NCBI GenBank assembly: GCA_002269645.1
Contig: NIVC01001310.1
Span: forward strand, 124,001 to 188,000
Length of the DNA stretch: 64,000 bases
Direction of reading: 5' to 3'
Source: Macrostomum lignano
Taxonomy: Eukaryota
Both the position numbers and the translations under genes were made by a program. The notes under the pieces are model-generated. The model was not told where the DNA came from. It was given only the letters and a program-made list of their open reading frames with translations, and ran no database searches. Positions 1 through 54,865 of this stretch are shown piece by piece. Every line of letters begins with the position of its first letter. The first letter of the stretch is position 1.

Positions 1-1871
1 AAATGGCCGGAAAACTACGTCTGTACGCTACACGCCGAGATTGGCAAAGCAATGGCTCAGGTCATTGTCAACAACTTGCCATGTCGAGCACTACTGGATT
101 CAGGCAGCTCGATCACAGTCATCTCGCAACAATTATGCAACAAGCTACGACTCGCGGTACGACCAGCAGCAATCGCAGTTGCAGGAGCAGGAGGACATTC
201 ACTCAACATCCTAGGAAAAGCAGATATCGACTTGAAAATTGCTAATAAACAGCTGACGGTCCCGACGTACATCATCGACAGACTACCAAACCAAGACGTC
301 ATCGTTGGAATCGACACGTTCAAGCAGCTTCAACTACCATTGACCTTCGACTTCAACAAGCAAACGTTTAGGATCGACACGGTGGAGCAACCGCTGATCA
401 ACCAGATTCGAGTACTACCGAAAGTAACTCTGCAGCAAGATGTCATTATCCAGCCTGAAAGCGCATGCTGGGTCAGAGCGAAAACGACCAGCGCGGCAGA
501 TGAAGCAATGATATTTGATCCACACAGGAGAGTCACGGCAAAACATCAAATCATGATGCCTACGGCACTAGTGCTGGTTGCAAAGGATAAGCAACTGCCA
601 GTACAAATCTTCAACCCGAACACAGAAACGGTTCATCTACGACAAGGAATGTGCATCGGTCATCTCAACACCCAAGCATCGGTTATGCTGATTGAACAAG
701 CGACTCCACGACTAACAGAGGAAGAATTTCAAAAGAAGATCAATTTGGATGACAGCCCGATTACGGAACAGCAAAAGAGGAAAGTTCGACAGCTGTTGTG
801 GAAGTACAACGAAGCCTTCTGCCATCATGATTACGACATCGGACGAGCCAAGGACATCAAACAGGAAATCAAACTTCTGCCGCACACGGAACCAATTCAG
901 TGCAAGCCGTACCCGATCGCCAAGCATCTGCAACAACACTTTGACGAAATCATCGATAAAATGCTAAAGCACGGCATCATCAGCAAAGCTATTTCGGCTT
1001 ACTCCTCACCGTGCCTACTGGTACAGAAGAAGGAGACAAACGAAAGACGACTCGTATGCGACTTCAGACTGTTGAACAAGTACATACCGACGGATCAGCA
1101 AAGCCTACCGAAGATCTCCGAACTACTAGCAAAGCTCAACACGGCAAAATTGTTCACGGTGTTCGACCTACGTCATGGATTTTGGCAAATTGAAATCGAG
1201 AAAGAGTCACGACAGTACACGGCTTTCAAAACCTACAATGGACAAGTATACGAGTACAATCGATCGCCGATGGGACTTAGCAACAGCCCAGCAACGATGA
1301 GTCGACTAACAGCATACATGCTAGCAGGATGCACGAACCTGCTGCACTATGTCGACGACATTTTAGCCTACGGAGAGGATTTCGAGCGACTCTACGAAGC
1401 TACGGAGAAGGCCCTAGCGCTCATTCAACGCCAAGGTCTGAAGCTACAACCAACTAAATGCAAATTCTTCCGAGACAACGTGCGTTACCTGGGACATCAG
1501 GTGACAGCCAAAGGAATCTCACCGGACCCAGACAACGTGGAAAAGGTGAAGAAGTTTCCTACGCCAACCAGTATAACGAAGGTCCAATCATTCCTTGGAC
1601 TTGCGCAATACTTCAGGAAGTTCTTACCTAACTTCGCAAAGACAGCAAAGCCACTGTACGACCTGCTCAAGTTCGACAAATGGAAGCAAGACAACTGGAC
1701 ACAGAGACAACAGGAAAGTTTCGACGAAATCAAACGACAGCTGACATCAGACGCACTGCTACAGCATCCGGACTTCGACAAGCCCTTCATCATCGAGACA
1801 GACGCCTCAGGAACGGGACTCGGAGCAGTCCTACTACAGGAAACCGAGGACAAGAAGGAACGACCTATTGC
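1..1871 (+). CDS. pol: Gypsy pol part 1: aspartyl protease, reverse transcriptase, start of RNase H
   Basis: Frame 1 is open from base 1. Motifs: LLDSGS (protease), RLVCDFRLLN, FTVFDLRHGFWQI, YVDD (RT), FIIETDASGTGLGAVL (RNase H). Homology continues in another frame after RPIA at about 1871. Confidence 0.95.
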
Positions 1872-3560
1872 TACGTCAGTCGAGCACTCAAACCAAATGA
1901 AACAAAGTGGTCAGCTACGGAACGAGAGCTACTAGGAGTCTTGTTCGCCCTGCGACAGTTTCATTACTACATCTATGGTTCTCCAATACAGACGATAGTA
2001 CGCACGGATCATGCACCATTGACCTACGTCGTAACTACAAAAGGACAGACCAACAACCGACTCATCAGAATGACACTCAAGATCCAGGATTACAACTACA
2101 AACTCGTCTACAAACCAGGAATTACCAACAAAGCCGCGGACGCCCTGTCAAGAGCCTATGAAGTCAACGCCATTCATCCAATCCCTAACATCAAGGAGTT
2201 GGTGGATGAAACCGAGCGCGACAACTTCTACCAAGCGGTTAAAGACGACGACAAGAACATCAAACTCAGTCCCATGGAACGAAAATTCCTACGCAAGCAA
2301 CGACAACACCTAACAATCAATAAGTCACGGCTCTACTGGATGAGCGACAATAAACCCAAGATCTACATACCATATTCGTTTCGGCAAGCAATTCTCAACG
2401 AGCTACACGACAACCCACTCGCTGGACACCTGTCGGCAGCAAAGACCATCGCGAGAGTGGAACAATACTACTTTTGGCCAACTATGTACGGCGACATCAA
2501 GCAGTATTGCAACAACTGCCATTCATGTGCTGCATCAAAGACAGGACGACGACAGAAACCGCAGCTACAGTCCATTCCGAAGTCGACTACAATGGACTGT
2601 CTAAGCATCGACATCACCGGACCGCTACCACCGAGCTGTCTCCAGGGCATCGCCTACACCTACATTCTAACCGCCTTGGATATCTTCTCGAAGTTTGCTA
2701 TCGCCATACCGATACCGGACATCACAGCTCAGACAGTGGCAATGAGTTTCTTCAACGAAATCATTTGCAAGTACGGCACGCCGAAGAACCTCACATCGGA
2801 CAACGGATCGCAGTTTACATCGCAACTGTTTCAGCAAGTCGTAAGGATTCTCAACATTACGCAGATCTACACATCGACCTACAATCCGAAGGCAAACATG
2901 GTTGAACGGTTTCACCGCAACCTGCACGAGATGATTACACATTTCGCGCACCAACAGCCGGAAGACTGGATCATCTACCTGCAATCTGTAACAATGGCCT
3001 ACAACAGCGCTATTCATCGATCAACGGACAATACGCCATTCTTCCTAATGTTTGGACGAGACTTCCAACCGCCGAATCTGCTCGCACAGCAATTGCTACC
3101 ATCGCAGTACGTGGAAGTACCGACTTCCATTCAGAAATTCGTCACGCAACTACACCTCGCATGGAAGATCGCCAAGCACAACATTGACAACCAGGTGGCT
3201 CTGACCACCGGCAACGACGCGAGATCGACAACCCTGACGGCCGGCGACATCGTCTACCTACACTACCCGCCACAGCAGACGCATAAACATGCACAGAAGT
3301 ACAAAGGACCCTATCGAGTGGTCCAACTAACGTCACCAACAACGGCACGCCTGGCTAATGTACAAGATCCACATCAGCACCAGTTCTACGTACACATTCA
3401 TCGACTAAAGAAGATCAACACTGACACAGCGACGTTTCTACCGACATTAGACAACGCTGATCGCACGCGTTCAACGAACCGCCACATCGCGACGAAGCAC
3501 GAGGAGACTCAAACGACAGATGTGAGCCAGCCACATGGCTACAACCTACGACCACGCTAG
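1872..3560 (+). CDS. pol: Gypsy pol part 2: RNase H remainder and integrase (HHCC, DDE, GPY/F)
   Basis: YVSRALKPNETKWSATERELL, TDHAPL, NKAADALSR; H-x5-H...C-x2-C zinc finger; SIDITGP / TSDNGSQF / MVERF catalytic motifs; KYKGPYRV; C-terminal GYNLRPR. Confidence 0.95.
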   Translation, partial: YVSRALKPNETKWSATERELLGVLFALRQFHYYIYGSPIQTIVRTDHAPLTYVVTTKGQTNNRLIRMTLKIQDYNYKLVYKPGITNKAADALSRAYEVNAIHPIPNIKELVDETERDNFYQAVKDDDKNIKLSPMERKFLRKQRQHLTINKSRLYWMSDNKPKIYIPYSFRQAILNELHDNPLAGHLSAAKTIARVEQYYFWPTMYGDIKQYCNNCHSCAASKTGRRQKPQLQSIPKSTTMDCLSIDITGPLPPSCLQGIAYTYILTALDIFSKFAIAIPIPDITAQTVAMSFFNEIICKYGTPKNLTSDNGSQFTSQLFQQVVRILNITQIYTSTYNPKANMVERFHRNLHEMITHFAHQQPEDWIIYLQSVTMAYNSAIHRSTDNTPFFLMFGRDFQPPNLLAQQLLPSQYVEVPTSIQKFVTQLHLAWKIAKHNIDNQVALTTGNDARSTTLTAGDIVYLHYPPQQTHKHAQKYKGPYRVVQLTSPTTARLANVQDPHQHQFYVHIHRLKKINTDTATFLPTLDNADRTRSTNRHIATKHEETQTTDVSQPHGYNLRPR

Positions 3561-3680
3561 AGTTTAGAGAACAACCCCGTGTAGTGACCGGGATAAAGAA
3601 TAGCACTACAGCTTCGCAAGCTTGTCGTAAAAGGCGACTAATCCGAGCGACACAAAGACAGCGACAAATTGACGACAATT

Positions 3681-4115
3681 ATGGGCAACGCACTGTCAAA
3701 ACAGGCGCCCCAGCCTCAGCAGCTATATGACTGCCCGATATGTTTAACTGATGACTTGGCTGTCAAGCCACCGACTATTTGCATCAATGGACATAAAGTT
3801 TGCGGACAATGTTTAAGTGATTCACACTATATTCAGCCCTGGCAGAGTTGTCCCCTCTGTAGAGATAGTTTGCGACAATGTGCCTATTGTTATTCTTGGC
3901 GCACGTTTCAATATTGTAACCACCAACATTTTATTTGCATGCACTGTTTGAAGCAAACCGCTAGTAGGGGCATTATAGGATGCCCCTTATGTAATAGTAT
4001 GCCGCGAGACTGCACGTTTCGAAAGTGGTGTCGTATCAAACCTGATGCCACTCGATGTCTACGCGATATTCGAGTTTTGACCGCTATATGTACTGAAAAG
4101 TTTTTAGAGTTTTGA
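3681..4115 (+). CDS. Accessory ORF of the retrotransposon: 144-aa tandem RING-finger protein with N-myristoylation motif
   Basis: ATG at 3681 gives MGNALSK. RING1 is C18-x2-C21-x12-C34-x3-H38-x2-C41-x2-C44-x12-C57-x2-C60. RING2 is C67-x2-C70-x8-C79-x3-H83-x2-C86-x2-C89-x11-C101-x2-C104. The ORF lies between the integrase stop and the PPT. Confidence 0.85.
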   Translation: MGNALSKQAPQPQQLYDCPICLTDDLAVKPPTICINGHKVCGQCLSDSHYIQPWQSCPLCRDSLRQCAYCYSWRTFQYCNHQHFICMHCLKQTASRGIIGCPLCNSMPRDCTFRKWCRIKPDATRCLRDIRVLTAICTEKFLEF

Positions 4116-4228
4116 CCAAACCCTCGCTTCTCTAGACGCGCACAAAATCAATTGTTTATTTCCTATATTACCTGATCACCGCAGAATTTTATTATTTCAT
4201 TGTTAAAACTCGGGACGAGTTTTTTCGT

Positions 4229-4240
4229 AAAAAAGGGAGA
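4229..4240 (+). promoter_or_regulatory. Polypurine tract (plus-strand primer)
   Basis: AAAAAAGGGAGA, preceded by the CTCGGGACGAG hairpin and followed 3 nt later by TGTAG. Confidence 0.8.
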
Positions 4241-4243
4241 TTT

Positions 4244-5107
4244 TGTAGAGTGTTCTACCTCCCGTTAAAAAAGGAAAAAAGAAGATAATCGTATAATACT
4301 ACTATAAGTAAGTAAGTACACGCATGTGCGCCTAAGCTTTGAATGAATCACGCTACCAGAAAAAGATGTTACCAGAATAATACGCCATGAGCCATTTTCC
4401 CCTTTTAGCGCAACACGTGAATTGTCATGATACTATTTTGGATCAAAAACTTGTCTATAAATACAAGCGATCTGAAGCGGTACCGGAGCCATTCTCCCCA
4501 CGGAAGAGGAGCGCTCCGAAGAGGAAGCCTTAGGAGGACTTCCTGATCTACCAAGTCAATCGAGACTCGGTCGAGTTGTTGCGGTAAGCCTTCCTTATTT
4601 GCGCCCGTTGTGTTAGAGACGTCTCGCTCAAGTCTATTGAGACTTGAGTCTAATTGAGTCTGTTGAGACTCTTGAGTCTGTTTAGACTCCATTGGTTGCA
4701 GTCTCCAGAAGGACTGCCCCTGATAGATCTTAGAGGACTATCAGTGGTTTCCGGAGCTATACCTAGAGTGCATAGAGGCACTGCTAGAAGAAGGAGGCTT
4801 AATTTAGACCGCAGTTTGGCGCAGGGTACCCATTGTTGCTACGAGGCCTCTGATTGGTCCTGACGGAAGATACCGGCCGGAAGAACTTATCGGAAGTACA
4901 AGAGGAACCAGGACCAGAGCAACTGAAGAATCAAGGCGCCTGATCTACGAGATCTACTGACAAGTTCCTAGCGAGAACTACTCAAGAAATTCAAATCCGG
5001 ATTAAAGGTAATTGAATACCTTCGTTTGACTTACTGGGTTGCCTAGCTGTTGAGCTAGAAGTGATTGTTCCTTGATTATCGAAAGTCGGGTAATAAGGAA
5101 CACATCA
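4244..5107 (+). repeat. 3' LTR (end tentative; may extend to about 5353)
   Basis: Starts TGTAGAGTGTTC just after the PPT. The candidate end GAACACATCA is partly inverse-complementary to the start. TATAAATA at 4456-4463. The 5' LTR is not in the window for comparison. Confidence 0.6.
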
Positions 5108-7624: not shown

Positions 7625-10600
7625 TCACACATGGCCAATCACTGGCGGCAGTGTCAGCCCCCGTTCAGCCAGCAGGGCAACATTATTAAGCTTTGGTGGC
7701 GCTGTTCTGGTGTGCCAGACAAGAATTCTGCTGCAATCGTTGGCCCGAGCTTCCAGGTCAGACTGACGGACGCCCAGGCTGGTTAACAGCAGGCTCTCCT
7801 GTTGATGCGTTGAAACGGCGTAATTATTTTAATTACATACTATTAAGAATCTGCGCATGGTAGATATCCCAAATCAGCAGATATCCCAAACCAGTAGATA
7901 TCCCAAACCAGTAGATTTCCCAAACCAGTAGATTTCCCAAATCAGCAGATATCCCAAACCAGTAGATATCCCAAACCAGTAGATTTCCCAAATCAGCAGA
8001 TATCCCAAACCAGTAGATATCCCAAACCAGTAGATTTCCCAAACCAGTAGATTTCCCAAATCAGCAGATATCCCAAACCAGTAGATATCCCAAACCAGTA
8101 GATTTCCCAAATCAGCAGATATCCCAAACCAGTAGATATCCCAAACCAGTAGATTTCCCAAATCAGCAGATATCCCTAATTAGTAGATATCCCAAATCAG
8201 TAGATATCCCAAATCAGCAGATATCCCAAATCAGTAGATATCCCAAATCAGCAGATATCCCAAATCAGTAGATATCCCAAATCAGCAGATATCCCAAATC
8301 AGTAGATATCCCAAATCAGCAGATATCCAATTATACAATTTCAAATGGATACTCAAATGACTAGAGCTAGCTAATGCGAGCAAATCCGATACCTGAAATC
8401 CTCTTTCAACCTTGTAGGCCAGTTTGGCTGCCGGTCGCTCATGCAGCAGCTGCAAATTGATGGCGAAGCCGGCCATGTCCAGGGGAAACTGGCGGTGCGG
8501 CTTGAACGCGACAATCCAACCCTGTTTTTGAGGTTGTGGAGTTTTTAATGCCAGTTCTTTGTGTACTTTTTAAATGCATTTGTGAGTACGTCATGGCTGT
8601 GGAAGTGTGGTAGCCTAATGGCTGTGGGAGTGTGCTAGCCTAATGGCTGTGAGAGTGTGGTAGCCTAATGGCTGTGGAAGTGTGATAACCTAATAGCTGT
8701 TAGAGTGTGGTAGCCTAATAGCTGTGAGAGTGTGGTAGCCTAATGGCTGTGAGAGTGTGGTAGCCTAATAGCTGTGAGAGTGTGGTAGCCTAATGGCTGT
8801 GAGAGTGTGGTAGCCTAATGGCTGTGAGAGTGTGGTAGCCTAATAGCTGTGAGAGTGTGGTAGCCTAATAGCTGTGAGAGTGTGGTAGCCTAATGGCTGT
8901 GAGAGTGTGGTAGCCTAATAGCTGTGAGAGTGTGGTAGCCTAATGGCTGTGAGAGTGTGGTAGCCTAATGGCTGTGAGAGTGTGGTAGCCTAATGGCTGT
9001 GAGAGTGTGGTAGCCTAATGGCTGTGAGAGTGTGGTAGCCTAATGGCTGTGAGAGTGTGGTAGCCTAATGGCTGTGAGAGTGTGGTAGCCTAATGGCTGT
9101 GAGAGTGTGGTAGCCTAATGGCTGTGAGAGTGTGGTAGCCTAATGGCTGTGAGAGTGTGGTAGCCTAATAGCTGTGAGAGTGTGGTAGCCTAATGGCTGT
9201 GAGAGTGTGGTAGCCTAATGGCTGTGAGAGTGTGGTAGCCTAATAGCTGTGAGAGTGTGGTAGCCTAATGACTATTCTGGTAGCCTAATGACTATTCTTG
9301 TAGCCTAATGACTATTCTGGTAGCCTAATGACTATTCTGGTAGCCTAATGACTATTCTGGTAGCCTAATGACTATTCTTGTAGCCTAATGACTATTCTTG
9401 TAGCCTAATGACTATTCTTGTAGCCTAATGACTATTCTGGTAGCCTGATGACTATTCTGGTAGCCTGATGACTATTCTGGTAGTCTAATGACTATTCTGG
9501 TAGTCTAATGACTATTCTGGTAGTCTAATGACTATTCTGGGAGCCTAATGACTATTCTGGTTGCCTAATGACTATTCTGGGAGCCTAATGACTATTCTGG
9601 TAGCCTAATGACTATTCTGGTAGCCTAATGACTATTCTGGTTGCCTAATGACTATTCTGGGAGCCTAATGACTATTCTGGTAGCCTAATGACTATTCTGG
9701 TAGCCTAATGACTATTCTGGTAGAGTAAGAGCTAGCTATTTTGTAGCTAAATAATATGAAAAACGATGCCTTAAAGAACAGAATGTACTTTTAATAACGC
9801 AATAAACCAACGCCGGCTTACTAGTACTCGACCATGAGCACAGCGAATTCCCTCGTACAGCAGGCCGCCAGCAAAGGCTACAGGCCATACCGATACTCGC
9901 CGAGTAGCCCTAATCTCGTCAAACAATCGCACATCATAGGTATTGTCATCGTCAGCTATGTACATAACGCCAGTTCTAGACGGATCGTTGCGTAACCATT
10001 CGAAAGCCAAATTGCGCTGTCTGACACCCTTCGGCCGCCACCAATAGGGCTCAGTTGACTTGAGCTTCTCATCCTCTGGTGTGGCCACGTATAGATGAGT
10101 ATAAGAAAGCACACCGCAGTTCCCAATGGTGTCGGCAACCAGAGACGATGGAGAATCGGCGTCTTCTACAACTAGCCAGTGAATTGCAGGCACTCTGGCG
10201 AGGGTGTTGCAGAGTCTAGTGAGTTCAGCTCGCTGCTCAGGTCGCCTAGAGTTAAGGTTGAGACATTGTTGCGTAACTAAGGCAGAAGTCCGTAGGGAAA
10301 CGCTTAAATTTTTTTACCAGTGTACACTTGGCAACGTGTTAAAGTTTCCACCCCGAAACGGGGGTTTCATAACTCCGAAAAGCAGCTTGTTTTCATATCT
10401 CCGACACTTCATGTCTCCGACACTTCATAACTCCGACACTTCATAACTCCCGACACTTCATGTCTCCGACACTTCATATCTCCAACACTTCATGTCTCCA
10501 TCACTTTCATATCTCCGACACTTCATGTCTCCAACACTTCATATCTCCGACACTTTCCTATCTCCGACACTTTCATATCTCCGACACTTTCATATCTCCG

Positions 10601-23036: not shown

Positions 23037-23728
23037 TATTACGTATTATAGCCTTAATTATGTACTTTTAATAAGTTTTATAATTTTATAATTTAAAACG
23101 ATTTAGTATATAATTGTCATATTAAATGTGCTATGCTTGCAATCTCGTATATGAATAAACCATCTATGTTTGCAACATACAACTATTTGCATGTTCAACA
23201 AAATTCAAACTTAAAATGCTGCAACTCACTTTCTACTTTCTCTTCCACACAATCTACTTAACTGATTTTTACAATTTCTTTAGTAGTAGCTATACTACTT
23301 CTCATATAGACTAATTTAATGTGAATATAAGATCCCTGTTGTTTTATTACAGGGTAAAGTTTATTGTATAAATTGCTAAGTATTTACAGTCGTTAATTTT
23401 AGTCTAACAGTATTTATCAGCACTGCACAAATGTCGTGCAGTTGTGCGCCAATACAGGCTTAAAGGATCGTACACTACGGAATACTGTACAGTATATTGT
23501 CAGAGAGGCTGGAAGTTTTACAAAAATCGAGCAATTTGGAAGTGTCATGAATTTGTCATTTTTGCAAAGTCTGTGTCATGGCCAAAACTTTGCGCGTTTC
23601 CATTGGGATACACAGCGGTCATTTTTTGTTAAATGTGCCATGTCATTTTTTACAATTCTCGTCATAAACGTGCCCCTTCTCGGCACGTTGATTTTAATTC
23701 CTGTTAACTCCTGTCCAACGGCTTATCC

Positions 23729-25366
23729 AAGCCGGTTGCATTCGCAAGCAGAGCCCTATCGGCAGTCGAGTCGAGGTACTCGGGAGGATGAGGCTCTCGC
23801 AATCAAGTTCGGCTGCCTGAAATTTCGACACTATCTCAGCGGCGCCGCCAACTTCACTGTCGTCACCGACCACAAGCCGCTGACCTTCATGCTCAAGCCC
23901 GGCTCGCGCCCACCTCCACGCAGCGAAGGCATGGCGCTCAGCATCAAGGACATGCAGTTCAGCGTCATCTATCAGCCAGGCCCGTTCAACCCGAGCGACA
24001 TCCTCAGCCGGCAGCCAGAGCCCGCTCCGACATCGATCAACATCGGCGAGATCTTGGACTCAAACTTCATCGGCAGCATCACACAAGCGGTGACGCCGAG
24101 AGGCCTGTCCCTGCAGCAAGTCCGGGAAGCCACGGCCCGTGATGCTATTCTATCGACTGTGCTGTCATTGTTGAGAACAGGCAATTGTGATCTGCGGGAC
24201 GGCAGCATCCGACGACTGCACGCCGACAGGCACGAGTTGACAAAGGCTTCTGGCCTTCTGCTGCGAGACCAAAGATTGATAATCCCAAAAGCCCAGCGGC
24301 CCGCTGTTCTCCAGCTTGCTCACCAAGGACATCAAGGCGAGACCAAAACACTGCGCCGACTCAATTCCAAGGTCTGGTGGCCCGGAATGTCAGCTCAGGC
24401 CAAGCAACTGGTAGCACATTGCCTGGAATGTGCGGCCACAAAACATCAAGCGGAAGTTCCGGCAAAACCCACTGCAACCGACTGAGCTGCCGGAGTCTGC
24501 CTGGTCCACCATCGGCATCGACTCTCTTGGACCTGCCAACGGCCGGCATTTCCTGATGATCGTAGACCACAACTCGCGCTACCCCATGGTCGTGGCGATG
24601 AAGTCGATCACAGCTAACCGCGCCACCTGACAGTTACAGCAGGTCTTCCCGACCTTCAGGATTCCCCAGCGGATCGTGACGGAAAACGGTCCGACATTCA
24701 CATCAGAAGCCTTCAGGAGTTTCGTCACAATCCACGGAATCACCAACCGGCGCATCACACCGTACCATCCTGAGGCAAATGGCATTACCGAGCGAATGAA
24801 CAGGTCCCTGAACAAGCTGCTCCACATCTCCAACGCCCAAGGAACCGACTGGAGGACGGCATTGCAGGAGTGGCTCGCCGCGTACCGCAGCACTCCGCAC
24901 ACGGCCACAGGAGTCGCCCCAGCCGACCTGATGTTCGGGAGACCAGTCCAAGACTGCATTCCAGGAGTCAAGCCGCAGGCTCCAGCAAAGACGGTCAGGA
25001 ACAGAGACCGTCAGTACAAGGCCGCCATGAAGCACTACGCCGACCGACAAGATCCGCCGCAGAGCATCGCATCCAAGCTGGCGATAAAGTCCTCCAGCTA
25101 TCGAATCCAGCCATCGAAAACGGACACGCCATTTGAAATTCAGCCCTGGACGATTACGGAGGTCAAAGGCGACTCTGTCATCCTGGAGAGCACGGGCGGC
25201 AGCAACAGGAGACGGACCAGACGAGACCGGCGGTCCAGAAGGCGACCCGACGGCCGCTCCAGCACCCGCGGAGCCACTGGCAGCAGCCGGTGCGGGGGAG
25301 CTGCCAATCACGAACCGTCAGCATCCAAGAAGCTGCAAACTGCCGCAACCCGATTATAGGACCTGA
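23729..25366 (+). pseudogene. Decayed Ty3/Gypsy pol fragment (RNase H-integrase), several frameshifts and stops
   Basis: KPVAFASRALSAVESRY, FTVVTDHKPL, NPSDILSR, AHQGHQG..VWWPGM..C..C, IGIDSLGP, TENGPTF (catalytic D to E), YHPEANGITERMN, YRSTPHTATGVAPADLMFGR. No LTR seen. Confidence 0.9.
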
Positions 25367-27694: not shown

Positions 27695-29637
27695 TTACTT
27701 CAAAACCGAAGCGATAGAATCCAAACTGAGCGCCAATAGACGACTCTTCTTGCAAATTGGCTGGCAGATGTTAATCTTGGCCTGCCGGCTTCCTCGGAAT
27801 TTAGCAATTAGGTTATGAATATAGTAGGTGCCGGTCTCGGAAAACTCACCTACCGACAGCATCAGCAGGTAGCGATCTTCAACGCAGTGGTCGTAAACGT
27901 AAGCTACAATCGAAGTCAGAATGCTAATAACAAAGTTAATGAATAGAACGGGGACAAATAGAACATAGAATACGTGCGTAACACTGAGGTCAATGCGGTC
28001 GATTCCGGGTACAAAAATATACGAGTCCACTATGCTCAACGATATTAGAAACGTGTTGTAAAAAGCTTTGAAAAATTCGTCTGCAGTATCCATTCGAGTA
28101 TCTGACGAATTGCCGATTCGTGAAAAAGCAAAACTCGACTGGAACATCCGGGTGAAGAAACAAGTCATCACAAGATAGAAGAAAATGAATACTATTGAAC
28201 TGGAGATGCACGTATAGAAACTGCTCATAAGTGTTGTTATTGGCAGAATGAGCCTGGCATAGCAGATGATGTTAGAGACACTGGCTAGCATGAGCAGCAT
28301 GACGCAGCAGCCACACACTGGGTAGATGAATTCGCCAAGCAGCAAACAGTTCCGCCCTGCATCCATATAGAGCCACAGAAGCAACGCAGCGACAATAAAT
28401 GACACCATGCAGGGCGTCATCCAGCTGACTATTTCCATCACGTTCTTTCTCGGACGTTGTGGGTAGCCAACCTTTCGTCTGCAAAAAATGAACCGATCAT
28501 TGCATTCATTGCAAGGTTTTAATATAAATTGTCACATTGCGGCTCAATTGTAACTCACCGATAGGTCTCCTTCTGCAAATACCAGAAACTGGCGTGCGCT
28601 ACTCCGTAAAGATTTACAAATATCCAGATTAATAGAATGAACTTGAAACCAGTTGGCATCGCCGCATCGCTTCCGCCGCACCGACTTCGCAGGTAGTCAT
28701 TGAGATCCGGCCCGGAGAACATCAGCGTGGCGAAGGTCATGAACAGTGAATTGCATAGATACACACCGAACACTACCTGGTTACGATGGAACAGCAGCTC
28801 AGCCCATCGACGCCAAAGCCTGCCGGAGCGGAAGATGCCCAGCTTTTTTAGTTCAGCCAAATCGCTGCGGCTGTACAAGTCTAGAAGCACGTTGATCGGG
28901 CCCGTCATGAACTGAGGACTGCCTCCGGTGATGTAAGCATCGTATGTAATTTGCTCACTCAAACCAAATGGTTCCGAGTGCACTTGCGGGCTTGAAGCGA
29001 GGTAAATGATAACGTACTCAACATAATTCGCCAGGCCTAGGAACACGCCCCAGCTCATCGGATCCATTCCAAACCTACACAAGGTCTGAATCATTCGCTG
29101 TTGCTGTTCCGTCGTGAACAGGGTCCTGTGAAACAGATCTAACAGACTCTTGCACTCTTCAGTCATACCCGAGCCTGAGGCGGAACCGGCGCTCTCGTCA
29201 GTCATGAAGCGAATCGCGCTCATCAGCACGTGATACGCAGTGAAGCCGTTGTCGTTAATCTCAGCAAAGTCGACGCCAGATTCGTTCATAAACCGGAGAC
29301 AGCGCTGAGCATTGTAGAAGATGGCAATAAAAAACGGATTGGTCGGAAACGGGTGCTTTGAGTTACCGATCGATGACGTGTGAAAAAAGTTGGGATCGCA
29401 ATCCGACCAGGTACCAGAAGTGTCGAAGCTCTGTAAGAACTTCTTCCAATTGAGTCGCCGAGAGGCCGCTTTCAAGTCGTCAACATTGTCGGTCGCGATG
29501 CACTTTATAAATGCAAGCCATTGTCGGTGACCTGGTAGAAACTCTTTGATGTCAAACTGACCTGGCTCATTTTTGGTACTCGTATCTTCCTCCAGGCAAT
29601 GTTGGACCGCAGTAGCAGGTGATACTTTGACTTTCAT
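27695..29637 (-). CDS. TRPV-like cation channel copy C, about 620 aa, 2 exons
   Basis: Exons 29637-28559 and 28478-27695 (80-bp GT-AG intron). Ankyrin-like NGFTAYHVL and GMDPMSWGVFLG, six hydrophobic segments, pore FYNTFLISLSIVD, S6 LFINFVISILTS. Confidence 0.8.
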
Positions 29638-30418
29638 GACGCGATTTTTTAACGCCTAGTTATTTTTTGTCTTTTTCAGTCAGTAGGTTGCCTTTCTATC
29701 GGTTGTTTAAGGTGGTAGCTGTAGCTGCTAAGTGCCTCTGCAACCAATCGGATTGTTTGTACCTCACAGGGCCGAGCAGTCCTTATATTGAGTAGGATAT
29801 CTTCAATTTCTTCCCCAAGACTGGAAATATTCAAGTTATATGAGCCATTTGCTTTGCTTCCTCATACGAATTCTTGTTAACTGATTCTTTTACAAAACTT
29901 TTATTATTCCACTTCCTACGCTTGCACTTGGCTTGGCCAAATATTGAAATTCAATTTGAATGCATATAGTATCTGAGAAGCTACAACTTCAATCTTTCAC
30001 GGCTTCACGTCGAGGCAAATTAAATTTCAATGAAAACAGAAACGGGATGCTTATGCACACTTTGGGAGGAGCTGCTCTTGTAGCATTTGTTCTCCAATAT
30101 GTACATTTACGCTTTGAAGTCTGAATAGTCTGAAGTTGAGATGACCGATGCATCTTGGAGACAAAAGCACGATATGTGAACAGAAATCCGGACTAGTGTT
30201 GATAAGGCCACAGTGAACTAGGATTCCCAGCTAGTGGTGCTAATTCTTATCATCTGGGAATAAACAAGGCTTAAACAAAAGATGAAGAGTGTCAATTTTA
30301 ATCGAACTGAAGGAATCAATAAATAGATATGATGTTTTGTTAAAAAAGGGTACGGCTCGTAGTAGCTACTGCTAAAGTAAGTGTGGAATTCTTCAAATCA
30401 AACTGTCAAATTCGTGTG

Positions 30419-35319: not shown

Positions 35320-37312
35320 TTAAAACAGACTGCTTCGACTCTCGCTGTCTCTGTGTCCTGTCGCGCACGTGTCCGATGGCGCATCGATTGCTGATTCGAA
35401 TGAGCAATAGCAGTTCACTATAAGCCTGCTCTGCTTTCGAATAGGACCGCAGAGTTTTATACGAACCTCTCGCCGACGAAAGCACTTACTTAATAGCTTG
35501 TGGATTAGGAAGAAAGTGGTCTCAGCGAACTCTGCCACGGATAGCATCAGCATGTACCTGTTCTCAACGCTATGTTCCTGCACGTGAGCGGCAATCGATG
35601 ACAAAATGCCGATTACAAAGTTGATGAAGAGCACAGGAACAAACAAGACGTAGAATACGTGCGTCACGTTTAGGTCAATACGATCGCTAGCCGGATAAAA
35701 CTTTTCTGCATCGACGATGTTAAGCGAAACCAGAAAGGTTTGATAGAAGGACTTGAGAAACTCGGCCAGATTATCCGGTCGGGTTGTGGTCGAATTTTCT
35801 GCTCTAGAGAAGGCAAAGCTAGACTGAAAAATTCTAGCGAAAACTCCAGTGAGCAGTACGTAGAGAAGGAAGAACCACGAGAACGTCACCATGCTTCGAT
35901 AGAGGCTACTCATCATTGCTGTTAGGCAGTGCAAATGCCGCAAGAAGCTGATCATCTGAGAGAAACCCGCTATTAGAAGCAGCATGATGCCGCAGCCGCT
36001 AACTGGATAAATTTGCTGACCTAGCAAGGCGCAGCTGTGCTCAGTGTCAAGGTAGATCCAGAGTAGAAAAATTGATGTCGGGAAGGCCAAGATGTACGGC
36101 AGGTACCAGCCAAGAATGTCGCCGACATTTTTTCGCGGCGAGCAGGGATATCCTACAGAGCGCCTAAAAGGAGATAAAATTTACTTTTATTTTCAGTTTT
36201 AACTTTGTGAATAATGATTTGATGAAACTGTGTGATAATTAATAATTCGCTTACCGATAGCGTTCCTTGCGCATATAACCGTAAACAACTGCTACGGTGC
36301 CAAAGAAACCAAGCGTAATCCAGCCAATTAGTATTGTAAGTAGACCGTATGGAAACGTAAATGGCTTGTCAGAACACCGATCATTTAAATATTCGTACAC
36401 GTTCGATCCGGCGAAAAATGCACTTGCGAATGTAAATATCAGTGCAACAAACAAGAATTGAACAAAGAACACTCGATTGCGCAAGTACAATGCCTCGGTC
36501 CACTGCTTCCAGAGAAAGCCGGTACGAAAGATTCCTAACGCTTTGATCTCAGCCAAGGTGCTCTGGCTGTAGATATCTACAAGAACGCTGATAGGACTGG
36601 TGAAAAAGCAGAAATTCTCGGCAGTAAAATCTGACACATCAAACGAGATTCGTTCATTAAGACCTTCAGTGTCTGAGTGAGCCAGAGTAGTTGGAGAGCA
36701 GTAGATTAGGACGTACTCAACGTAATTCGCCAGGCCTAGGAACACGCCCCAGCTCATCGGATCCATTCCGAACCTACACAAGGTCTGAATCATTCGCTGT
36801 TGCTGTTCCGTCGTGAACAGGGTCCTGTGAAACAGATCTAACAGACTCTTGCACTCTTCAGTCATACCCGAGCCTGAGGCGGAACCGGCGTTCTCGTCAG
36901 TCATGAAGCGAATCGCACTCATCAGCACGTGATACGCAGTGAAGCCGTTGTCTTTAATCTCAGCAAAGTCGACGCCAGATTCGTTCATAAACCGGAGACA
37001 GCGCTGAGCGTTGTAGAAGATGGCAATAAAAAACGGATTTGTCGGAAACGGGTGCTTTGAGTTACCGATCGATGACGTGTGCAAAAAGTTTGGATCGCAA
37101 TTCGACCAGGTACCAGAAGTGTCGAAGCTCTGTAAGAACTTCTTCCAATTGAGTCGCCGAGAGGCCGCTTTTAAGTCGTCAACATTGTCGGTCGCGATGC
37201 ACTTTACAAATGCCAGCCATTCCGAACGGCTATTGACAATTCTTTTAATATCCATTAGCAATTTGGCTGTCTCTTTACCATCCATAGATTTTGGTGCTAC
37301 TTTTGCCGTCAT
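35320..37312 (-). CDS. TRPV-like cation channel copy B, about 633 aa, 2 exons
   Basis: Exons 37312-36255 and 36163-35320 (91-bp intron at the same YR|R position). Pore FYQTFLVSLNIVD. Confidence 0.8.
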
Positions 37313-37895
37313 TTATAAGCTAATTCTAATAGCTGGGAGAACTCGTTCACTTTGCTCTGCTGCACTCCAGCAATCAGAGAGGGACAAAAAATTGGAGCAG
37401 GCATTAGATTTATTGCGTTTCTGTCTCATTGGTTCAAAGCTCCCTCCGTTCAATATTGATACTCTGACAGAATTTGATTTGCTGCTGACCAGTATGTCTG
37501 ATTTTTATGCCAGAATTTCATGTTGGGGCATAAAACAGCAGGTTACTTTTCGAGTGTAGCTTTACATTTTCTCTTGCAGTCATGAAAACTATCTAATAGG
37601 TTATAGCTCTTTAAATATTTTTAATAAGGGCATTCGCTTAAAATGTTTCAGAACTTTGTCTTTATACGAGCGTAAATACACTTTTGAAAGTCGTGGGGCA
37701 TTTCAAAAACTCATCGTTTTGAATCGTTGAAGTGGTTGATTTTCTAGGTTAGGAAAGTAAAAAAAACTGGCTTATCGACAAAATAATTTTTCCGTCTGTA
37801 CCGACTTCGACGATGTAAAAGTTTGAGCCTATGAAAGCGACCCATTTTTTCATTCAAGCAAGTATTGTCGCCTGTATTAGTTAGTAACAGTGAAA

Positions 37896-39869
37896 TCAGT
37901 TCTGCTGACAATTTTTGGCCTCAAGCACAGCCGAGAGCCGTTCATTGTTGGCTGCCAGAAGTCGGCTGTGCCTACTCACTGGACGGCAGCAACGAAGCAC
38001 CAACTGCTCACCGCTGCTTCCCACTAGTTTCCTTATCGCCGACCGAGTTGGCGACAAAATCATCTCGGAGAACTCCGCCACCGACAATATGAGAAGGTAG
38101 CGATTCTCTGGACTGTGCTCGTGAACGTGCGTTACAACCGATGTCAGAATGCCGATCGCAAAGTTTAGAAACAGAACAGGTACAAACAGGATGTAGATCA
38201 TATGCGTGATGCTCATGTCGATTCGATCATCCGATGGTGAAAGCATGCTCGAATCGATAATGTTTAGCGACACTAGAAACGTTCGATAAAAGGCGGTGAA
38301 GAAGTTGACAGATTTTGGGCCACTATTCTCCTCCGATATTGAGGTGCTGTTTCTAACTACATAATCGCTGCTAGCAGAGAACAGGCGCACTTGAAATACG
38401 CGTGTGAAGACGCCAGTTAGTACCAAGTAGAGCATGATGAACACGTTGAATGTACCAATGCTCTTGTACATGCTGGTCATCAGGGTTGTAAGCGATGGGA
38501 CCAGTCGGAGATAGGCAACGATTAGCGATACACTAGTAAGCAGCAACAGTAGAATGCAGCAGCCGCTCACAGAGCAGATGTGATCGCCCAGCAGTCTGCA
38601 ACTGTTGCCAGTGTCCGAGTAAAGCCATAAGAGAAATGTTGAGATGGGAATAGACAGCATCCACGGCAGGAACCAAAACAGCATGTCAACGTGCGCATGC
38701 CTAGGCGCAATCGGATAGCCAACTTTTCTTCTGGAAGAAACATTGGTTAAATACCGTTATAATTAAGTGTCTCTTCAGGAGTACGAGCGTATTTAAAGTT
38801 GCTATACTTACCTGTACTGCTCTTTGCGCCAGAGACTGTAGCCGCTGGCGGCAGTTCCAAATGTAGCATAAAAGAACCAGTAAACCAAGATGATGAACAC
38901 TCCTATTGGAAATGGAAAATCCCGACCTGAACACCTGGCCTTAAGAAAATCGTTGACACCGCCGCCAACAACTGACACCGTTGCAGCGGTGAGGAAAATT
39001 ACGTTGGACAGAAGCAGCGCGGTGAAGAAGCGGTTGCGCATGTACAACACTTCGGCCCACTGCTTCCAAATAAAGCCAGTCCGGAAAATTCCAAGAGCCT
39101 TGATCTCCGCTAAAGTGCTCTGTCCGTACATGTCGACCAGGACACAAATTGGGCTAGTGAAAAAGCTGGAATCATCGCCGGTCATTTCGGACACGTCAAT
39201 GCTGACGCGTTCATTTAGTCCAGCAGCGTCGGAATTCACGACGGGGGCTGGAACGCAGAATGTCATGATGTACTCGACGTAGTTTGCCAGGCCGAGAAAC
39301 ACTCCCCAACTGAGTGGGGCCATGCCGAGCTTGCAGGTTACATTTAGCATGCGGCGTTGCTGCTCTGCCGTGAATAGAGTCTTGTGAAACAGAGCTAACA
39401 GACTTTTGCACTCTTCGGTTATGCCCGAGCCTGATGCGGAATCGGCGCTCTCGTCAGTCATGAAGCGAATCGCGCTCATCAGCACGTGATACGCCGTAAA
39501 GCCGTTATCGCTGATCCTAGAGAAGTCGACATCGGATTCGTTCATAAACCGGAGACAGCGCTGGGCATTGTAGAAGATGGCAATAAAAAACGGATTAGTA
39601 GGAAACGGATGCTTTGAGTTACCAATCGCTGATGGATGCGCAAAGTTCGATTCGCAATCAGACCAGATGGCATTAATGTCGGAGCTCTTCAGAAACTCTT
39701 TCCAATTAAAACTCTTTGAAGCTACTCGCAAGTCCTCGACATCATCGTTGGCTATACAATTGACGAATGTAAGCCACTCTTTGGGGCCCTGCAGGAAGCT
39801 TGTGATGTCGTTTTGAGTGTGCAGATCTGCCTTTGACAGTTGCCCGTTGTTAAGAATTAGCTCAAACAT
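37896..39869 (-). CDS. TRPV-like cation channel copy A, about 630 aa, 2 exons
   Basis: Exons 39869-38812 and 38730-37896 (81-bp intron, same position). Pore FYRTFLVSLNIID, S6 LFLNFAIGILTS. Confidence 0.8.
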
Positions 39870-42073
39870 TTTAAAGGATATCTGAGTGCTGCAAAACTAG
39901 TTATGAGCTACTCCTGGCTCTGTGCAGCTCAGTTTGTCGACGAGCTCCGTTATATCCACACAGCAGGCACTGACTGCTGCTCAAATGAGATTACGTCGGA
40001 TTAGCCTACATTCACTGACTCGGTACTCTCAACGCTTTTAAATTAACTCGTATTGATTCGCTGTCGTTGTGACAAATGTTATCAGAAGCGCTGGTTCGTT
40101 TAATTAAGCGAGATTAAGTAAATGAACAAGCCTATTCTCTTCATTTACAGTGCCTATCTGCAGTTTGCTAGACTAGCAATCATATTAGAGAACTGGCGGC
40201 CACCGTGTCACGTCCGATTACGCTGATAATTTACATGAATTTCAGCCAACCTTGATGAGAAATGATTATTTGTCCCAGCTTGTAGAACTACATTTCCATT
40301 AAATAGATTGGAAGTGATTTTTTGTTGTGCTTTGCAATCAGACTTTGCAATTATTCTCAAGAGAAAGAGTTCAATAATTAGATTATGGTTACTGGTATAA
40401 TAAGTTCTTGTGAATTGCATTGTTAGCGAAGCTGCACTTTTCATTTGAACGAGGGTCTAGGAGTGTGCGATTAAGTGGAGCCATTGCGACGCTCATAGCA
40501 ACGCAAGCAAACAGCGCGGTAGCTCAGAAAAACCCCATAATTGAATATCGCATTCTAATTATCAATCTTGATTCTTGAGCACTTGGCTAGCACTGATTTA
40601 TTCTCAGGTTTAATTCTAGATTATTCTTAATTGAACTTGATGCCAGAACAAGCCTTCGCAAAAAACTAAAATCTTATTAAGAGTCGAAAGTGACAAGCAA
40701 GTGCTGTGTGATAAAAGTCTAGTGCTAAGAACTTCGGGGGTGTAAGTAAGAAGAATATTGTAATCGAATTCTTGTGTTTCTGTGTTTGTAACGCCACTTT
40801 CCTTTATTTTTCACATTCTATCAATGATTGTGCATCTACAGTAAACATTATTCATTGGAATAATTGTTTCTTGCACTCTGTTCCAGAAAACATGCTCGCA
40901 TTTGGAGTTAGTCAAAAAATGAACAAATTAAAACAAATTTGCAAATAAACCAGTATTCTGCTGTAAGTAGAATGCTTGGAGGATTTCAATAGTATTGAAT
41001 AATACATGTATGTGCATTAATGCATAACAATTTATATTTAGGATGCCGGATCATGTCCTGAAGTATACGTAAAGAGCAAATTAAAAAAACAAAAGTACAT
41101 GTATATGCTACCAAATATAAGTTAGAGTCGGATCTGTTGAATTTCAAGTCTGCATTTACAATGCAGTCAAAAGCTTTTTGTTATATTTATTTATTAAACT
41201 TATAATTGAGTCTTAAATTCCTGCTTAGTTTTTAGTTACCATCACCAAATTTCACTTAGGTTTTTACTCGTATTTTTAATCAGCAGCTCGAGCAGAATCT
41301 TTAGTTTTAGTTTTCTGATGAAACAATTGACTGTTGGAATTCATGTTGAGCTTTACGATTTGATGTACGAAAAATAATGGACGCTGACAAAAGAATGTGC
41401 TACTATGGTAGACGCATCTTACCGTTCAGGTAATTAATTTAGGCATCGACAAATCTAAACGACATGCTGTAGCCCTGAGCCGCGTCACTGACAATACCAT
41501 GCTTAGTTGCCGACTTGTAGGAATCCTGTCCAGCCAGGAACTGAACTCGAAGAACTTGCTCTGGCCAAGCCTCAGCAGGCCAATTTGGACTGCAGCTTTG
41601 ACCATACACGACGTGGCTCTGTAGACTCCAAATCCATATAGAGTTTGCCTCGGCGTTCCTCTCAAGCGGATGGTGCGGCATTTGCCAATCAGATTTTGGT
41701 AGCGGCTTACGTCGTTCCCCTTCAACTCTTTGCCGCGTGGGCAATCTGGAATATGCGACATGTAGTGCTGTTAGTGGTAGTAGTCAAAGACCAGGTATGA
41801 CAAGGACGAAAAACTCGAAGCTCGTTTAATATCTTTGAAGGCCAATTTCCTAAAAAAATACACTGCGGATATCGACACTAGCAAGTGGGCAGAGTTACAG
41901 AGTTGTGACGTTGTCAGTTTAAGGTGGTCCCGAAAAGGGCCGTTGGACTGCTGTTTCTCTATAGTTTCAACCCTTCAGTTTCACCGTTTCAACTAAACTT
42001 TTCCATTTGTTTATTGCGACGTTTACTTGTAGTAGTGCCCAACGATTTTGTGGCAATTTCTAATTCACTGTAT

Positions 42074-49998: not shown

Positions 49999-51014
49999 CA
50001 GACATTCAGGTATTGCTTTTGAACCAGCTTTTACCTGCAGATCGATGCTAAAAGTTATAATATTATGATAGCGTTTAGATTAACGCATTTAGTTGGATAA
50101 TTGAATAGACGCGGGTTGGAGTCCCGGTTTCTAATGCCTGATTATTTGTAATTCAGTATCCGGAAAGGAACTGGGAAAAATTAGTCACTCACTATAAGCT
50201 ACATTACTCTCTCCCATTTTCCTTTATCCCCTCTCCTCACGCTAAAGTCCACCTGATAATCCATTGCTCAACAAATGCATAACCGCAGGTGATTCTTGCA
50301 GCTGGCCAAGCCGAATCGCTCCTGGCTGACATCAGGGAGTTCCAATCCAGCCAGCGCTGGTACACGGACCGCGGAGTCCCCTACCGACGCGGATACCTGC
50401 TGCACGGGCCGCCCGGCTGCGGCAAGACCAGCTTCATCACAGCTTTGGCCGGCTCTCTCCAGTGCTCAATCTGCATGCTGAACCTGGGCGAATACGGCTT
50501 AGACGATGCCCGCCTGGACCACCTGTTGAATCACGCGCCGCCTCAGTCTGTTCTGCTACTAGAGGATGTCGATGCCGCTCTGGCTGCCCAAGCTAGATTA
50601 GCCGAGTCGCCTAGCCGGTACTCCGGCATGCCCGGGATCAGCCTGACCGGCCTGTTGAACACCTTAGACGGGGTGACGTCATCTGAGGGCCGGCTGCTGT
50701 TTATGACCACTAATTACCCGGAGCGGCTGGACCCGGCTCTGACCCGGCCAGGTCGAGTTGACCTCTACGTCCGAATTGGCTACTGCAGCCGAGATCAGCT
50801 GGTCCGAATGTTTGCCAGGTTTTATCCCGAGGCCGGTATGGAAGCGGCTAAAGAATTTGCTAATAAATTATTAATTAGCGATTCAATTGATTGCGTTGAA
50901 AGCGCTAGAATTAGTCCGGCTAAAGTGCAAGGACATTTTCTAATGCACAAATCGGATTGGAAAGCGGCTTTGGATTCGGCTACTGACTGCCTGACTGTTG
51001 CTGAGGCTGCTTGA
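47562..51014 (+). CDS. BCS1L: Mitochondrial AAA chaperone BCS1, about 434 aa
   Basis: Exons 47562-47564 (ATG only, tentative), 47634-47914, 48768-49062 and 50289-51014. [36 protein letters not shown], Walker A GPPGCGKT, Walker [20 protein letters not shown]. Confidence 0.96.
47921..48640. repeat. Purine-rich compound array in BCS1 intron (longer unit, then 20-bp GAGAGAGTAGATAAGGATAG)
   Basis: Direct reading; begins right after the donor. Confidence 0.93.
49067..49998. repeat. (GTCT)n/(GCCT)n compound microsatellite, about 930 bp, BCS1 intron
   Basis: Direct reading; begins immediately after the GTGA of the donor. Confidence 0.98.
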
Positions 51015-53178: not shown

Positions 53179-54865
53179 ATGATGAGTAACCCTTTGGATT
53201 CCGAAGACGAAGATTCAATGGACAGTTGGTCGCCTTTAAAAAAAGAATTTCAAGCCGCTTCGCTGTTCGTTCGAAGCGCAACTGGCAACTTGAAGCCTGA
53301 CGAACTGCTGTATCTTTACGCCAGATATAAGCAGGTAATATTCTTCAGCTATAAAATGCGTTTTCTTCTACTTATGTTAGTAGGAAAAATGCATTTTTCA
53401 GTTTTAAACAGTTCAAAACTTTGAATCTTTAGGCTCTGGACGGACCTTGCAATATTCCGAGACCTGGATTTTTCGATTTTCAAGGCAAACAGAAATGGTA
53501 AGATTTTTTAAGGAGACTTTAGATAATAGATATCCAGTGATGCTTTTATACAAGTTTAATAAGTACTTTTAAATGGGTTTTTAGGCCCCGGAACAGTCTG
53601 AATGATATTTTAAATTTTTAGTAGTTTTTAAAAAACACGAGTTACCCGATGGAATCTAGTCTGAGTTTAGAGGTGTCCAATATCATAGATATTGACTGAG
53701 ATTAGAGATATTGACTGAGATTATAGATACCCAATATAGATATTGACTGAGATTAGAGATACCCAATGTAGATGTCCACTGAAATTAGAGATACCCAATA
53801 TAGATATCAACTGAGATTAGGGATACCCGGTGTAGATATCAACTGAGATTAAAGATACCCAATATAGATATCAACTGAGATTAGAGATACCAAATATAGA
53901 TATCAACTGAGATTAGAGATACCCAATAGAGATATCAACTGAGATTAGAGATACCAAATGTAGATATCAACTGAGATTAAAGATACCCAATATAGATATC
54001 AATTGAGATTAGAGATACCAAATGTAGATATCAACTGAGATTAGAGATACCAAATGTAGATATCAACTGAGATTAGAGATACCAAATGTAGATATCAACT
54101 GAGATTAGAGATACCAAATGTAGATATCAACTGAGATTAGAGATACTGATACAATAGTACTGAGACTTGATATATCCAATAGAAATCAGTTATTAGTTAT
54201 CAAGTGACGTAGCAACTAAAATTTATCAATATCAAAACAGGGACGCTTGGCACTCGTTGGGCCAAATGCCGACAGAAACGGCCATGTCAGAGTACGTAGC
54301 CTTTGTCAGCGATCGTTTTCCTGATTGGTCTTCTTCTGATAAAAAAGTTGGCAAAGGCAGCGGCGCTGGTGGTGCAGCATTTGGCGCCAGAGTCAGCACA
54401 ATGACGGCGCTAGGCAGTGTTGAAGGCGACAACGATGTTGAACATGACGATAAAATTGATAAAGAAATCTTGCAAGCTTTCACTTTGTTTAAATCAGACG
54501 GTTTAACCGAACGAGTTCGGGCACTGTTGAAAAGCAAGCCGGAATTGGCAAAATCTAGCGCAGACTCTGCTGGTCAGACTCTGTTGCATTGGGCAGCTGA
54601 TCGAGCTGATGAAGCAGCCTGTAGGGAATTGCTGAAGCTGGGATCTGATCCTAATAGACCGGACTGCGACGGTATGACTCCGTTGCACACAGCCGTAGCC
54701 TCTACACGATCAATCGAATCCGTTAAGACTGTAGTCGCATTGTTGCTGGCTTCTGGTGGACAATTCGACATCTCAGTTGAGGACGAGTCTGAGACCGTCA
54801 AGCCTGAGGATCTAACTGATAATGCCGAGATTTTGGCTCTGTTGTGGCAAGCTGCAGTTGGTTAA
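53179..54865 (+). CDS. ACBD6: Acyl-CoA-binding domain + ankyrin repeat protein, about 281 aa, 3 exons
   Basis: Exons 53179-53334, 53433-53497 and 54241-54865. ACB domain [33 protein letters not shown], then ankyrins GQTLLHWAADR and GMTPLHTA. Confidence 0.93.
53685..54146. repeat. 32-bp minisatellite (AGATATCAACTGAGATTAGAGATACC...), ACBD6 intron 2
   Basis: Direct reading; 32-bp spacing. Confidence 0.93.

Follow-up and report, generated by a model that had tools for sequence, protein, structure and literature searches.

A truncated gene 3' of the integrase of a Macrostomum lignano Ty3/gypsy element points to a cassette of likely RING E3 ligases

What is a small gene with two RING-type zinc finger patterns doing inside a Ty3/gypsy retrotransposon of the flatworm Macrostomum lignano? 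The question is raised by the window that we analysed, a stretch of 64,000 nucleotides (contig NIVC01001310.1, positions 124,001 to 188,000), in which an open reading frame of 144 codons (positions 3681-4115) is placed after the integrase stop codon (3558-3560) and before the polypurine tract (4229-4240); these and all other features of the element are on the plus strand. As proposed in an earlier note, the product starts with MGNALSK and carries two C3HC4 ligand patterns, which we located at residues 18-60 and 67-104. Our work supports the following answer: the frame is the truncated first gene (ORF-A) of a cassette of two to three paralogues located 3' of the integrase in an enveloped Ty3/gypsy clade, and the full-length proteins are likely the element's own RING E3 ligases, with a predicted action in trans on host restriction proteins. 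We assign this reading as a whole a probability of about 0.55.

The membership of the element in the Ty3/gypsy group is evident from paired LTRs of 864 bp that are 100% identical and bounded by TG...CA, from a flanking GGGG target-site duplication, from the presence of both a primer binding site (PBS) and a polypurine tract, and from the Pfam domain order protease, reverse transcriptase (RT), RNase H and integrase. The 3' part of its gag-env-pol polyprotein gene occupies positions 1-3560, with a single frame change within RNase H near position 1,870, and the 3' LTR, which has a TATA near 4456, extends from 4244 to 5107. The 5' LTR, gag and an env-like region lie upstream of the window (G000:C1310:118485-124000). 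There, a single long frame encodes Gag with a CCHC knuckle, an acidic stretch, an env-like region of 628 residues (208-2,091 bases upstream of window base 1) and then the protease. The env-like region has two bounding hydrophobic segments, a basic cleavage-like site and six N-glycosylation sequons, and it is conserved at 61-100% in every RING-bearing family whose stretch covered env. Five of five members matched the Pfam family Monjiviricetes_fusion, under the cut-off (best E 9.4e-6), and a comparison of the region with PDB sequences gave no match. The arrangement, with an env-like region in frame between gag and pol, is that of a GAG-ENV-POL errantivirus; as our RT tree was poorly supported and had no named references among its sequences, we place the element in none of the named clades (Mag, CsRN1, Gmr1/Osvaldo). 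Since an env-like gene is present, the premise of the earlier note that the ORF replaces env in an element without one fails. Elsewhere in the window, we take positions 23403-25359 (minus strand) to be a second, decayed gypsy pol. Three tandem ORF pairs that are partly homogenised between copies (27695-29655 and 35320-39896, minus strand) look to us like ankyrin/TRPV-type channel genes, and host-like exons at 50283-51014, 54197-54865, 57266-58921 and 62115-62801 (all plus strand) resemble, in this order, BCS1, an ankyrin/ACBP protein, sterol O-acyltransferase and a NudC-type protein.

The ORF had been described as intact; comparison with other loci revealed that it is a shortened form of a gene that normally encodes about 222 amino acids. 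At six loci (L024-L029), window-like flanks on both sides enclose about 1.2 kb of extra sequence, and there ORF-A has 222 codons and is followed by a paralogue of 210 amino acids, ORF-B. Codons 1-104 of the window ORF are identical to those of the full ORF-A, dense differences begin at about nucleotide 4004, and the stop codon falls at the start of the family's invariant W-P motif: the C-terminal domain and the entire ORF-B are gone and a segment of a foreign subfamily (4004-4188) stands in their place. Since the similarity of this segment to the other subfamilies compared reaches only 69-80%, we regard the short form as a recombination product that lost the helical C-terminal domain and ORF-B. 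The short form occurs at 23 genomic places, all of them devoid of both parts, and its junction is present in contigs of public runs from four studies, which together rule out an assembly artefact as its source. Around the ORF at the window locus, neither a separate target-site duplication nor repeat ends were seen.

The short forms are themselves decaying. The ORF stops at codon 144 in six of the 23 copies, at codon 125 in 15, and at codons 114 and 82 in one each; zinc ligands are lost in three of the six copies that reach 144 amino acids, and Gly2 in 2 of the 23. Frequent stops in other copies had been named in the earlier note as a finding that would speak against a functional gene: they were indeed found in the window subfamily, where 17 of the 23 closest copies stop earlier, but not in the clade as a whole. 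Another subfamily, present at about 20 places, has a stop at codon 71; the one copy examined lacks two RING1 cysteines and ORF-B, and its LTRs are 99.2% identical. As the most numerous young copies have broken cassettes, the cassette genes are dispensable in cis. The 144-amino acid product of the window copy, which keeps both fingers, is likely to be inactive or a decoy because the predicted substrate domain is missing.

The RING cassette marks one Ty3/gypsy clade and has a fixed slot 3' of the integrase. Integrase matches fall into two tiers of 66-100% and 34-47% identity, and the 91 rows of the upper tier merge to 88 places. A RING-gene match lies no more than 1.5 kb downstream at 82 of these 88 places, a count based on the 83 ORF-A-type places from a genome search that gave at least 151 matches to the window ORF; among the six misses are two contig ends, two places with the leader motif described below and no match in range, and one doubled integrase. 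None of the 11 sister-family stretches from the lower tier matched the RING-family profile. This co-occurrence bears out the idea that the gene is a part of the element. Some of the sister families carry other cargo. One of them (L097, L098; 41% integrase identity) has, after the integrase, an ORF for a J-domain with the HPD motif (L098:4083-4490, plus strand; Pfam DnaJ, E 1.1e-13). Others (L091-L094) have an ORF of about 260 amino acids that starts at CAG|ATG as well as an antisense ORF of 85 amino acids (L092:5481-5735, minus strand; L093:6055-6312, plus strand), whose product combines a coiled-coil-like stretch with a linker rich in glycine, a single transmembrane segment and a tail of Cys and basic residues and resembles a small fusogen or viroporin.

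Cassettes of two genes were found in the families C282, C1154, C583 and C301, and cassettes of three in C391, C1063 and C1405. Where both LTRs were covered, the LTR pairs that enclose the two or three paralogues are 99-100% identical, and every ORF-A-type match examined sits inside an LTR element or among clustered LTR fragments. The paralogues align over their full length, with RING1, RING2 and then a helical domain with a W-P-x-P motif; different paralogues may serve different substrates or compartments. At L036-L042 (G000:C2121:1-70000), many subfamilies contribute copies and fragments of LTR elements to dense same-strand clusters that abound in pieces of RING genes, and similar clusters occur on C87, C1130, C272, C1405 and C4009; they look like traps of the piRNA-cluster type. 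A UniRef entry annotated as a host "RING-type protein" (P0004, 660 amino acids) is a chimeric gene model that joins LTR exons and ORF-B copies in such a fragment cluster.

The full-length genes are old and maintained. Purifying selection between subfamilies, on both zinc fingers as well as the helical domain, is indicated by Nei-Gojobori dN/dS ratios of 0.07-0.29: 0.07-0.13 for full ORF-A pairs in the subgroup that starts with Met-Gly (MG), 0.21 and 0.28 for two other ORF-A pairs, 0.18-0.22 for ORF-B pairs and 0.07-0.29 for the C-terminal domains; many subfamily pairs are saturated at synonymous sites, and saturated pairs yield no ratio. An HMM search of 1.84 billion proteins identified three full-length relatives (P0005-P0007, E 1e-38 to 2e-32) and fragments. 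The ORF-A-like P0005 shares 36-42% identity with its best full-length matches in the M. lignano genome. In the tree, P0005-P0007 fall on both sides of the split between A and B/C, with long branches that leave their exact place unsure; the gene duplication is thus old. Only the full HMM search succeeded: word-index searches for homologues of ORF-A and of the family alignment gave no match, and neither did pattern scans of metagenome and viral contigs. Genes that are under strong selection and yet lost from most young copies are what one would expect if their product acts in trans on the host. If the product does act in trans, copies with broken cassettes, the window copy included, would still multiply with the aid of full-length copies.

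How the RING genes might be expressed is suggested by the sequences in front of them. A non-coding leader of 63 nucleotides (3576-3638) between the pol stop codon and ORF-A is conserved across families; it consists of a predicted H-type pseudoknot (3576-3610), which ends in the candidate splice acceptor AG (3610-3611), and a hairpin (3624-3638). The core pattern of the leader has 104 matches as compared to eight for the reversed control, nearly always about 100-130 nucleotides before an ORF-A match. The pseudoknot is predicted from the pairing of the loop of a stem with a stretch further downstream; among eight related sequences, this pairing shows two-sided changes at two of its seven pairs, with 97.7% of cells paired and few independent events. 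Rfam gave no match for the leader other than two at chance level. For ORF-B, CAG directly precedes the ATG in 9 of 11 sequences, and CAG plus two nucleotides in the other two, while the upstream sequences are otherwise widely different; the background for CAG|ATG is 5 of 154 ATGs in one element stretch. The LTR exon is free of ATG and ends in a conserved splice donor (window 4583/4584), and one contig of run X13 joins exactly this predicted donor to an acceptor inside the LTR (4869/4870). The LTR thus probably contains an intron (4584-4869); its donor lies about 110-125 nucleotides after the TATA in five of six LTR families, and a second donor-like site is located near 5009. The P0004 model uses the same LTR donor as well as the acceptor before ORF-B. 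Splicing to the RING genes is a prediction: contigs of seven runs presumed to be RNA contained no joint from the LTR donor to an ORF-A or ORF-B acceptor, and contigs drop rare forms, so that these data show neither splicing nor its absence. We propose that the LTR promoter drives the RING genes through subgenomic messages with a non-coding LTR exon, and that the pseudoknot leader tunes splicing or initiation of ORF-A. Readthrough of the pol stop codon into ORF-A was rejected, as the window has an intervening in-frame stop codon and the frame differs among families.

Which activity can be expected from the proteins? Pfam matches of the window ORF are weak, below the curated cut-offs and mostly in RING1 (Sina_RING, E 4.6e-4, 20.7 bits versus a cut-off of 29.3). 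The genome matches and the zinc ligands, which are near-invariant in an alignment of 18 diverged relatives, place the double-RING pattern beyond chance. RING1 (C18-C60; 3732-3863) has seven invariant C3HC4 ligands and the eighth in 17 of 18 representatives. The residues of an active E3 ligase, an option already raised in the earlier note, are present in 15-18 of the 18: Val/Ile before the second Cys (15/18), Leu/Tyr after it (18/18), Pro (18/18) and an Arg after the last Cys (Arg61 in the window; 18/18, and also in P0005-P0007). We take the position directly after the last RING Cys to be that of the linchpin. According to section 6 of PMC12326332, E2~Ub is made ready for transfer by a cationic linchpin, in most cases an Arg. 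Because RING1 has kept both the E2-binding residues and the linchpin Arg, it is predicted, and likely, to be an active E3 ligase that would bind the ubiquitin-charged E2 through conserved hydrophobic residues, the Pro and the Arg. Among the E2s of the host, a UBE2D-like gene is located at L116:1489-1929. The expected cross-brace fold was recovered for RING1: the family profile had 28 matches among PDB sequences (best E 9e-6), all but three within RING1, to RING proteins (TRIM5, TRIM21, RING1B, SIAH1, BRCA1). Moreover, residues 13-65 of an AlphaFold model of full ORF-A (pLDDT 87.7, pTM 0.79) superpose on RING domains with an rmsd of 2-2.5 Å over about 48 residues at Z 4-5, which is a middling value such as common structural arrangements also give.

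The likeness to SINA/SIAH ligases that had been noticed in the window ORF extends to the family. Sina_RING is the best Pfam match of RING1, with 16 of 18 members at E<=0.1 and some second genes above the cut-off, and the RING of host SINA is 30-44% identical to RING1. The alignment with host SINA is limited to the RING, and no Pfam match to the SINA zinc fingers or the TRAF-like substrate domain was found in the 18 members, which instead have a second RING-like finger and an all-helical domain. RING1 was therefore probably acquired from a SINA-like donor. Among viral folds, the closest are those of RING E3 ligases encoded by large DNA viruses, for RING1 only and none at E<=0.001, from genomes and with an architecture that differ from those of the cassette; in the Atlas, clusters of generic viral RINGs came up at 0.90-0.91, with low recognition, and serve as a lead only. 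RING2 (C67-C104; 3879-3992) has eight invariant ligands and, in the model, the same hairpin-helix order as RING1; the fold matches are not centred on it. The E2-activating residues are not conserved: an Arg in the linchpin place occurs in 0 of 18 representatives and the Pro in 12, and the second Cys is mostly followed by Gly, Asn or Thr. We predict a structural role for RING2. The C-terminal part is all helical in the model and has no recognised relative in a fold-match search or a usable match in the Atlas; this novel domain with its W-P-x-P motif may select the substrate.

The features of RING2 also suit a different idea, namely that the proteins are non-catalytic zinc-finger adaptors or decoys, which would block a pathway through binding of nucleic acid or of the host's E2s or E3s, with no ubiquitin transfer. 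Many RING proteins are inactive partners, and short forms that retain both fingers and lack the helical domain are the most numerous copies. The linchpin Arg, however, has been kept in all 18 representatives and in P0005-P0007 at an overall identity of only about 20-40%, for which selection for catalysis is the best fit, and we consider a purely non-catalytic role rather unlikely.

If the proteins are indeed ligases, their substrate might be the element itself: ubiquitination of Gag or Env at membranes could serve polyprotein processing, ESCRT recruitment or budding. This idea shares the RING1 evidence (E2-binding residues, linchpin Arg and fold) with the preferred one, and it is in line with the env-like gene and the myristoylation motif of one ORF-A subgroup. 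PTAP and PPNY motifs resembling late domains were observed just upstream of window base 1 (L031:9947-9979); they follow directly after the env transmembrane segment, before the protease and outside Gag proper, and can be counted in its favour. However, a PPxY motif by itself suffices to attract NEDD4-type ligases of the host, the myristoylation motif is absent from 14 of 18 family representatives, and two to three paralogues that diverged long ago are easier to reconcile with several host targets than with a single substrate of the element. Ligases directed at the element's own particle are thus an unlikely explanation.

The myristoylation motif was part of the case, in the earlier note, for a second option, a matrix factor resembling arenavirus Z, which would bring particles to membranes instead of an envelope protein. 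We take the M-G-x-x-x-S at the start of the window ORF (3681-3701) to fit the N-myristoylation consensus. As a defining trait, it did not stand up to comparison: MG starts were found in four of eight ORF-A representatives, in none of ten second or third genes and in none of the three outside relatives, that is, in 4 of 18 representatives of the family. All four belong to one derived ORF-A branch (support 100/99), and the predicted motif is a local add-on of this branch, which may have gained a myristoyl anchor to membranes. Arenavirus Z is a small, essential protein with an N-terminal Gly, one RING and late motifs; the cassette proteins have two fingers and a helical domain, Gly2 in one subgroup only, and are lost in most young copies. 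As had been noted before, the window ORF contains no PTAP, PPxY or YPxL, and late-domain motifs are likewise absent from ORF-A and ORF-B (P0001-P0003). Arenavirus Z was not among the fold matches listed, 50 of them for the viral library, which still leaves room for a likeness. The four MG-subgroup representatives have kept G2 and S6 at a divergence of 25-32%, in agreement with a matrix function; yet the element has an env-like gene of its own, the motif is lost even in 2 of 23 close copies, and a structural particle protein should be hard to lose. A matrix protein or env stand-in is thus highly improbable.

Equally improbable is a neutral, decaying passenger, be it a captured piece of a host gene or a separate insertion: this is narrowly true for the window subfamily, in which stops and ligand losses accumulate, and is already largely refuted for the clade by purifying selection between subfamilies that are almost saturated at synonymous sites, by the fixed position in one clade, by the restriction of the similarity with host SINA to the RING, by the absence of separate insertion ends around the ORF, and by the location of every ORF-A-type match examined in LTR elements or LTR-fragment clusters.

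How does a cassette of trans-acting RING ligases compare with known systems? Large DNA viruses use self-encoded RING proteins against host defences (herpesvirus ICP0, baculovirus PE38 and the RING proteins of giant viruses), and retroviral accessory proteins such as Vif, Vpr and Vpu rely on ligases of the host and are not known to have a RING of their own. An AIR1 finger, for its part, is a CCHC knuckle and not a C3HC4 RING. By analogy, we infer that host defence proteins may be the targets of the cassette. The nearest precedent for the idea of element-carried ubiquitination domains is Burro/GYPSM1, a giant planarian gypsy element that, in the part of PMC6431247 covered here, has env between gag and pol as well as ubiquitination and apoptosis domains (MATH/TRAF, BIR, BCL2, a SUMO-like domain and an AIR1 motif labelled "RING Zn-finger"). 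Unlike the cassette, these domains lie inside a giant polyprotein or in an upstream ORF, and no stand-alone tandem double-RING genes 3' of the integrase appear in that part. LTR retrotransposons of bdelloid rotifers are similar in having a family-specific non-env ORF3 after pol, reportedly expressed from spliced messages, with a GDSL esterase, a DEDDy exonuclease or CC/TM as cargo; they differ by their single ORF3 without a tandem of paralogues, whereas the window element adds its cargo to env (PMC5408684, as far as covered here, with no match for RING or ubiquitin cargo).

The element family itself is most likely that of Platyhelminthes_Rhabditophora_Mlig_errantivirus_2, a GAG-ENV-POL errantivirus with an HSV/gB-type Env (ENV_HSV) and 16 copies (Chary and Hayashi, eLife 2026, PMC13524379). 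The portion of that article considered here describes an env-like region in frame between gag and pol, as in the window element, and the two share the LTR length (about 864) and the 12-base PBS; the LTR-to-LTR spacing is 9,727 in the published entry and 9,716-9,759 in our short-form copies. The same portion covers gag, env and pol only and includes neither the RING cassette nor the longer form or the leader: the terms "RING" and "accessory" had no match in the main text, and "RING" had none in seven supplementary files. The text of PMC12801592, by term search, does not contain RING either, and its supplements have the word 150 times in a differential-expression table, where the row checked was a transcript annotation. 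We found no description of RING accessory genes in a gypsy element in the openly searchable literature; within this scope, the earlier remark that the combination had not been described agrees with our search. Thus, the element family is known, and its RING cassette appears, in the literature covered, to be undescribed.

A bolder version of our preferred reading, of trans-acting ligases directed at the host, is tentative: this Ty3/gypsy lineage might be an invertebrate "complex retrovirus", with an envelope, an old duplicated set of E3 ligases whose new substrate fold serves to destroy host silencing or restriction factors (e.g. of the piRNA pathway), a pseudoknot switch, and cassette-less free-riders that are supported in trans. 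Retroviruses borrow host ligases and large DNA viruses encode their own, and we found no Ty3/gypsy element with stand-alone RING ligase genes described. The genome of M. lignano offers natural controls, with full, shortened and broken cassettes side by side, and in addition an uncharacterised helical domain and a conserved leader without an Rfam match. The defences of flatworms against retroelements are barely mapped; should the cassette proteins prove active, their substrates would reveal which host factors hold retroelements in check in a transgenic flatworm model rich in stem cells.
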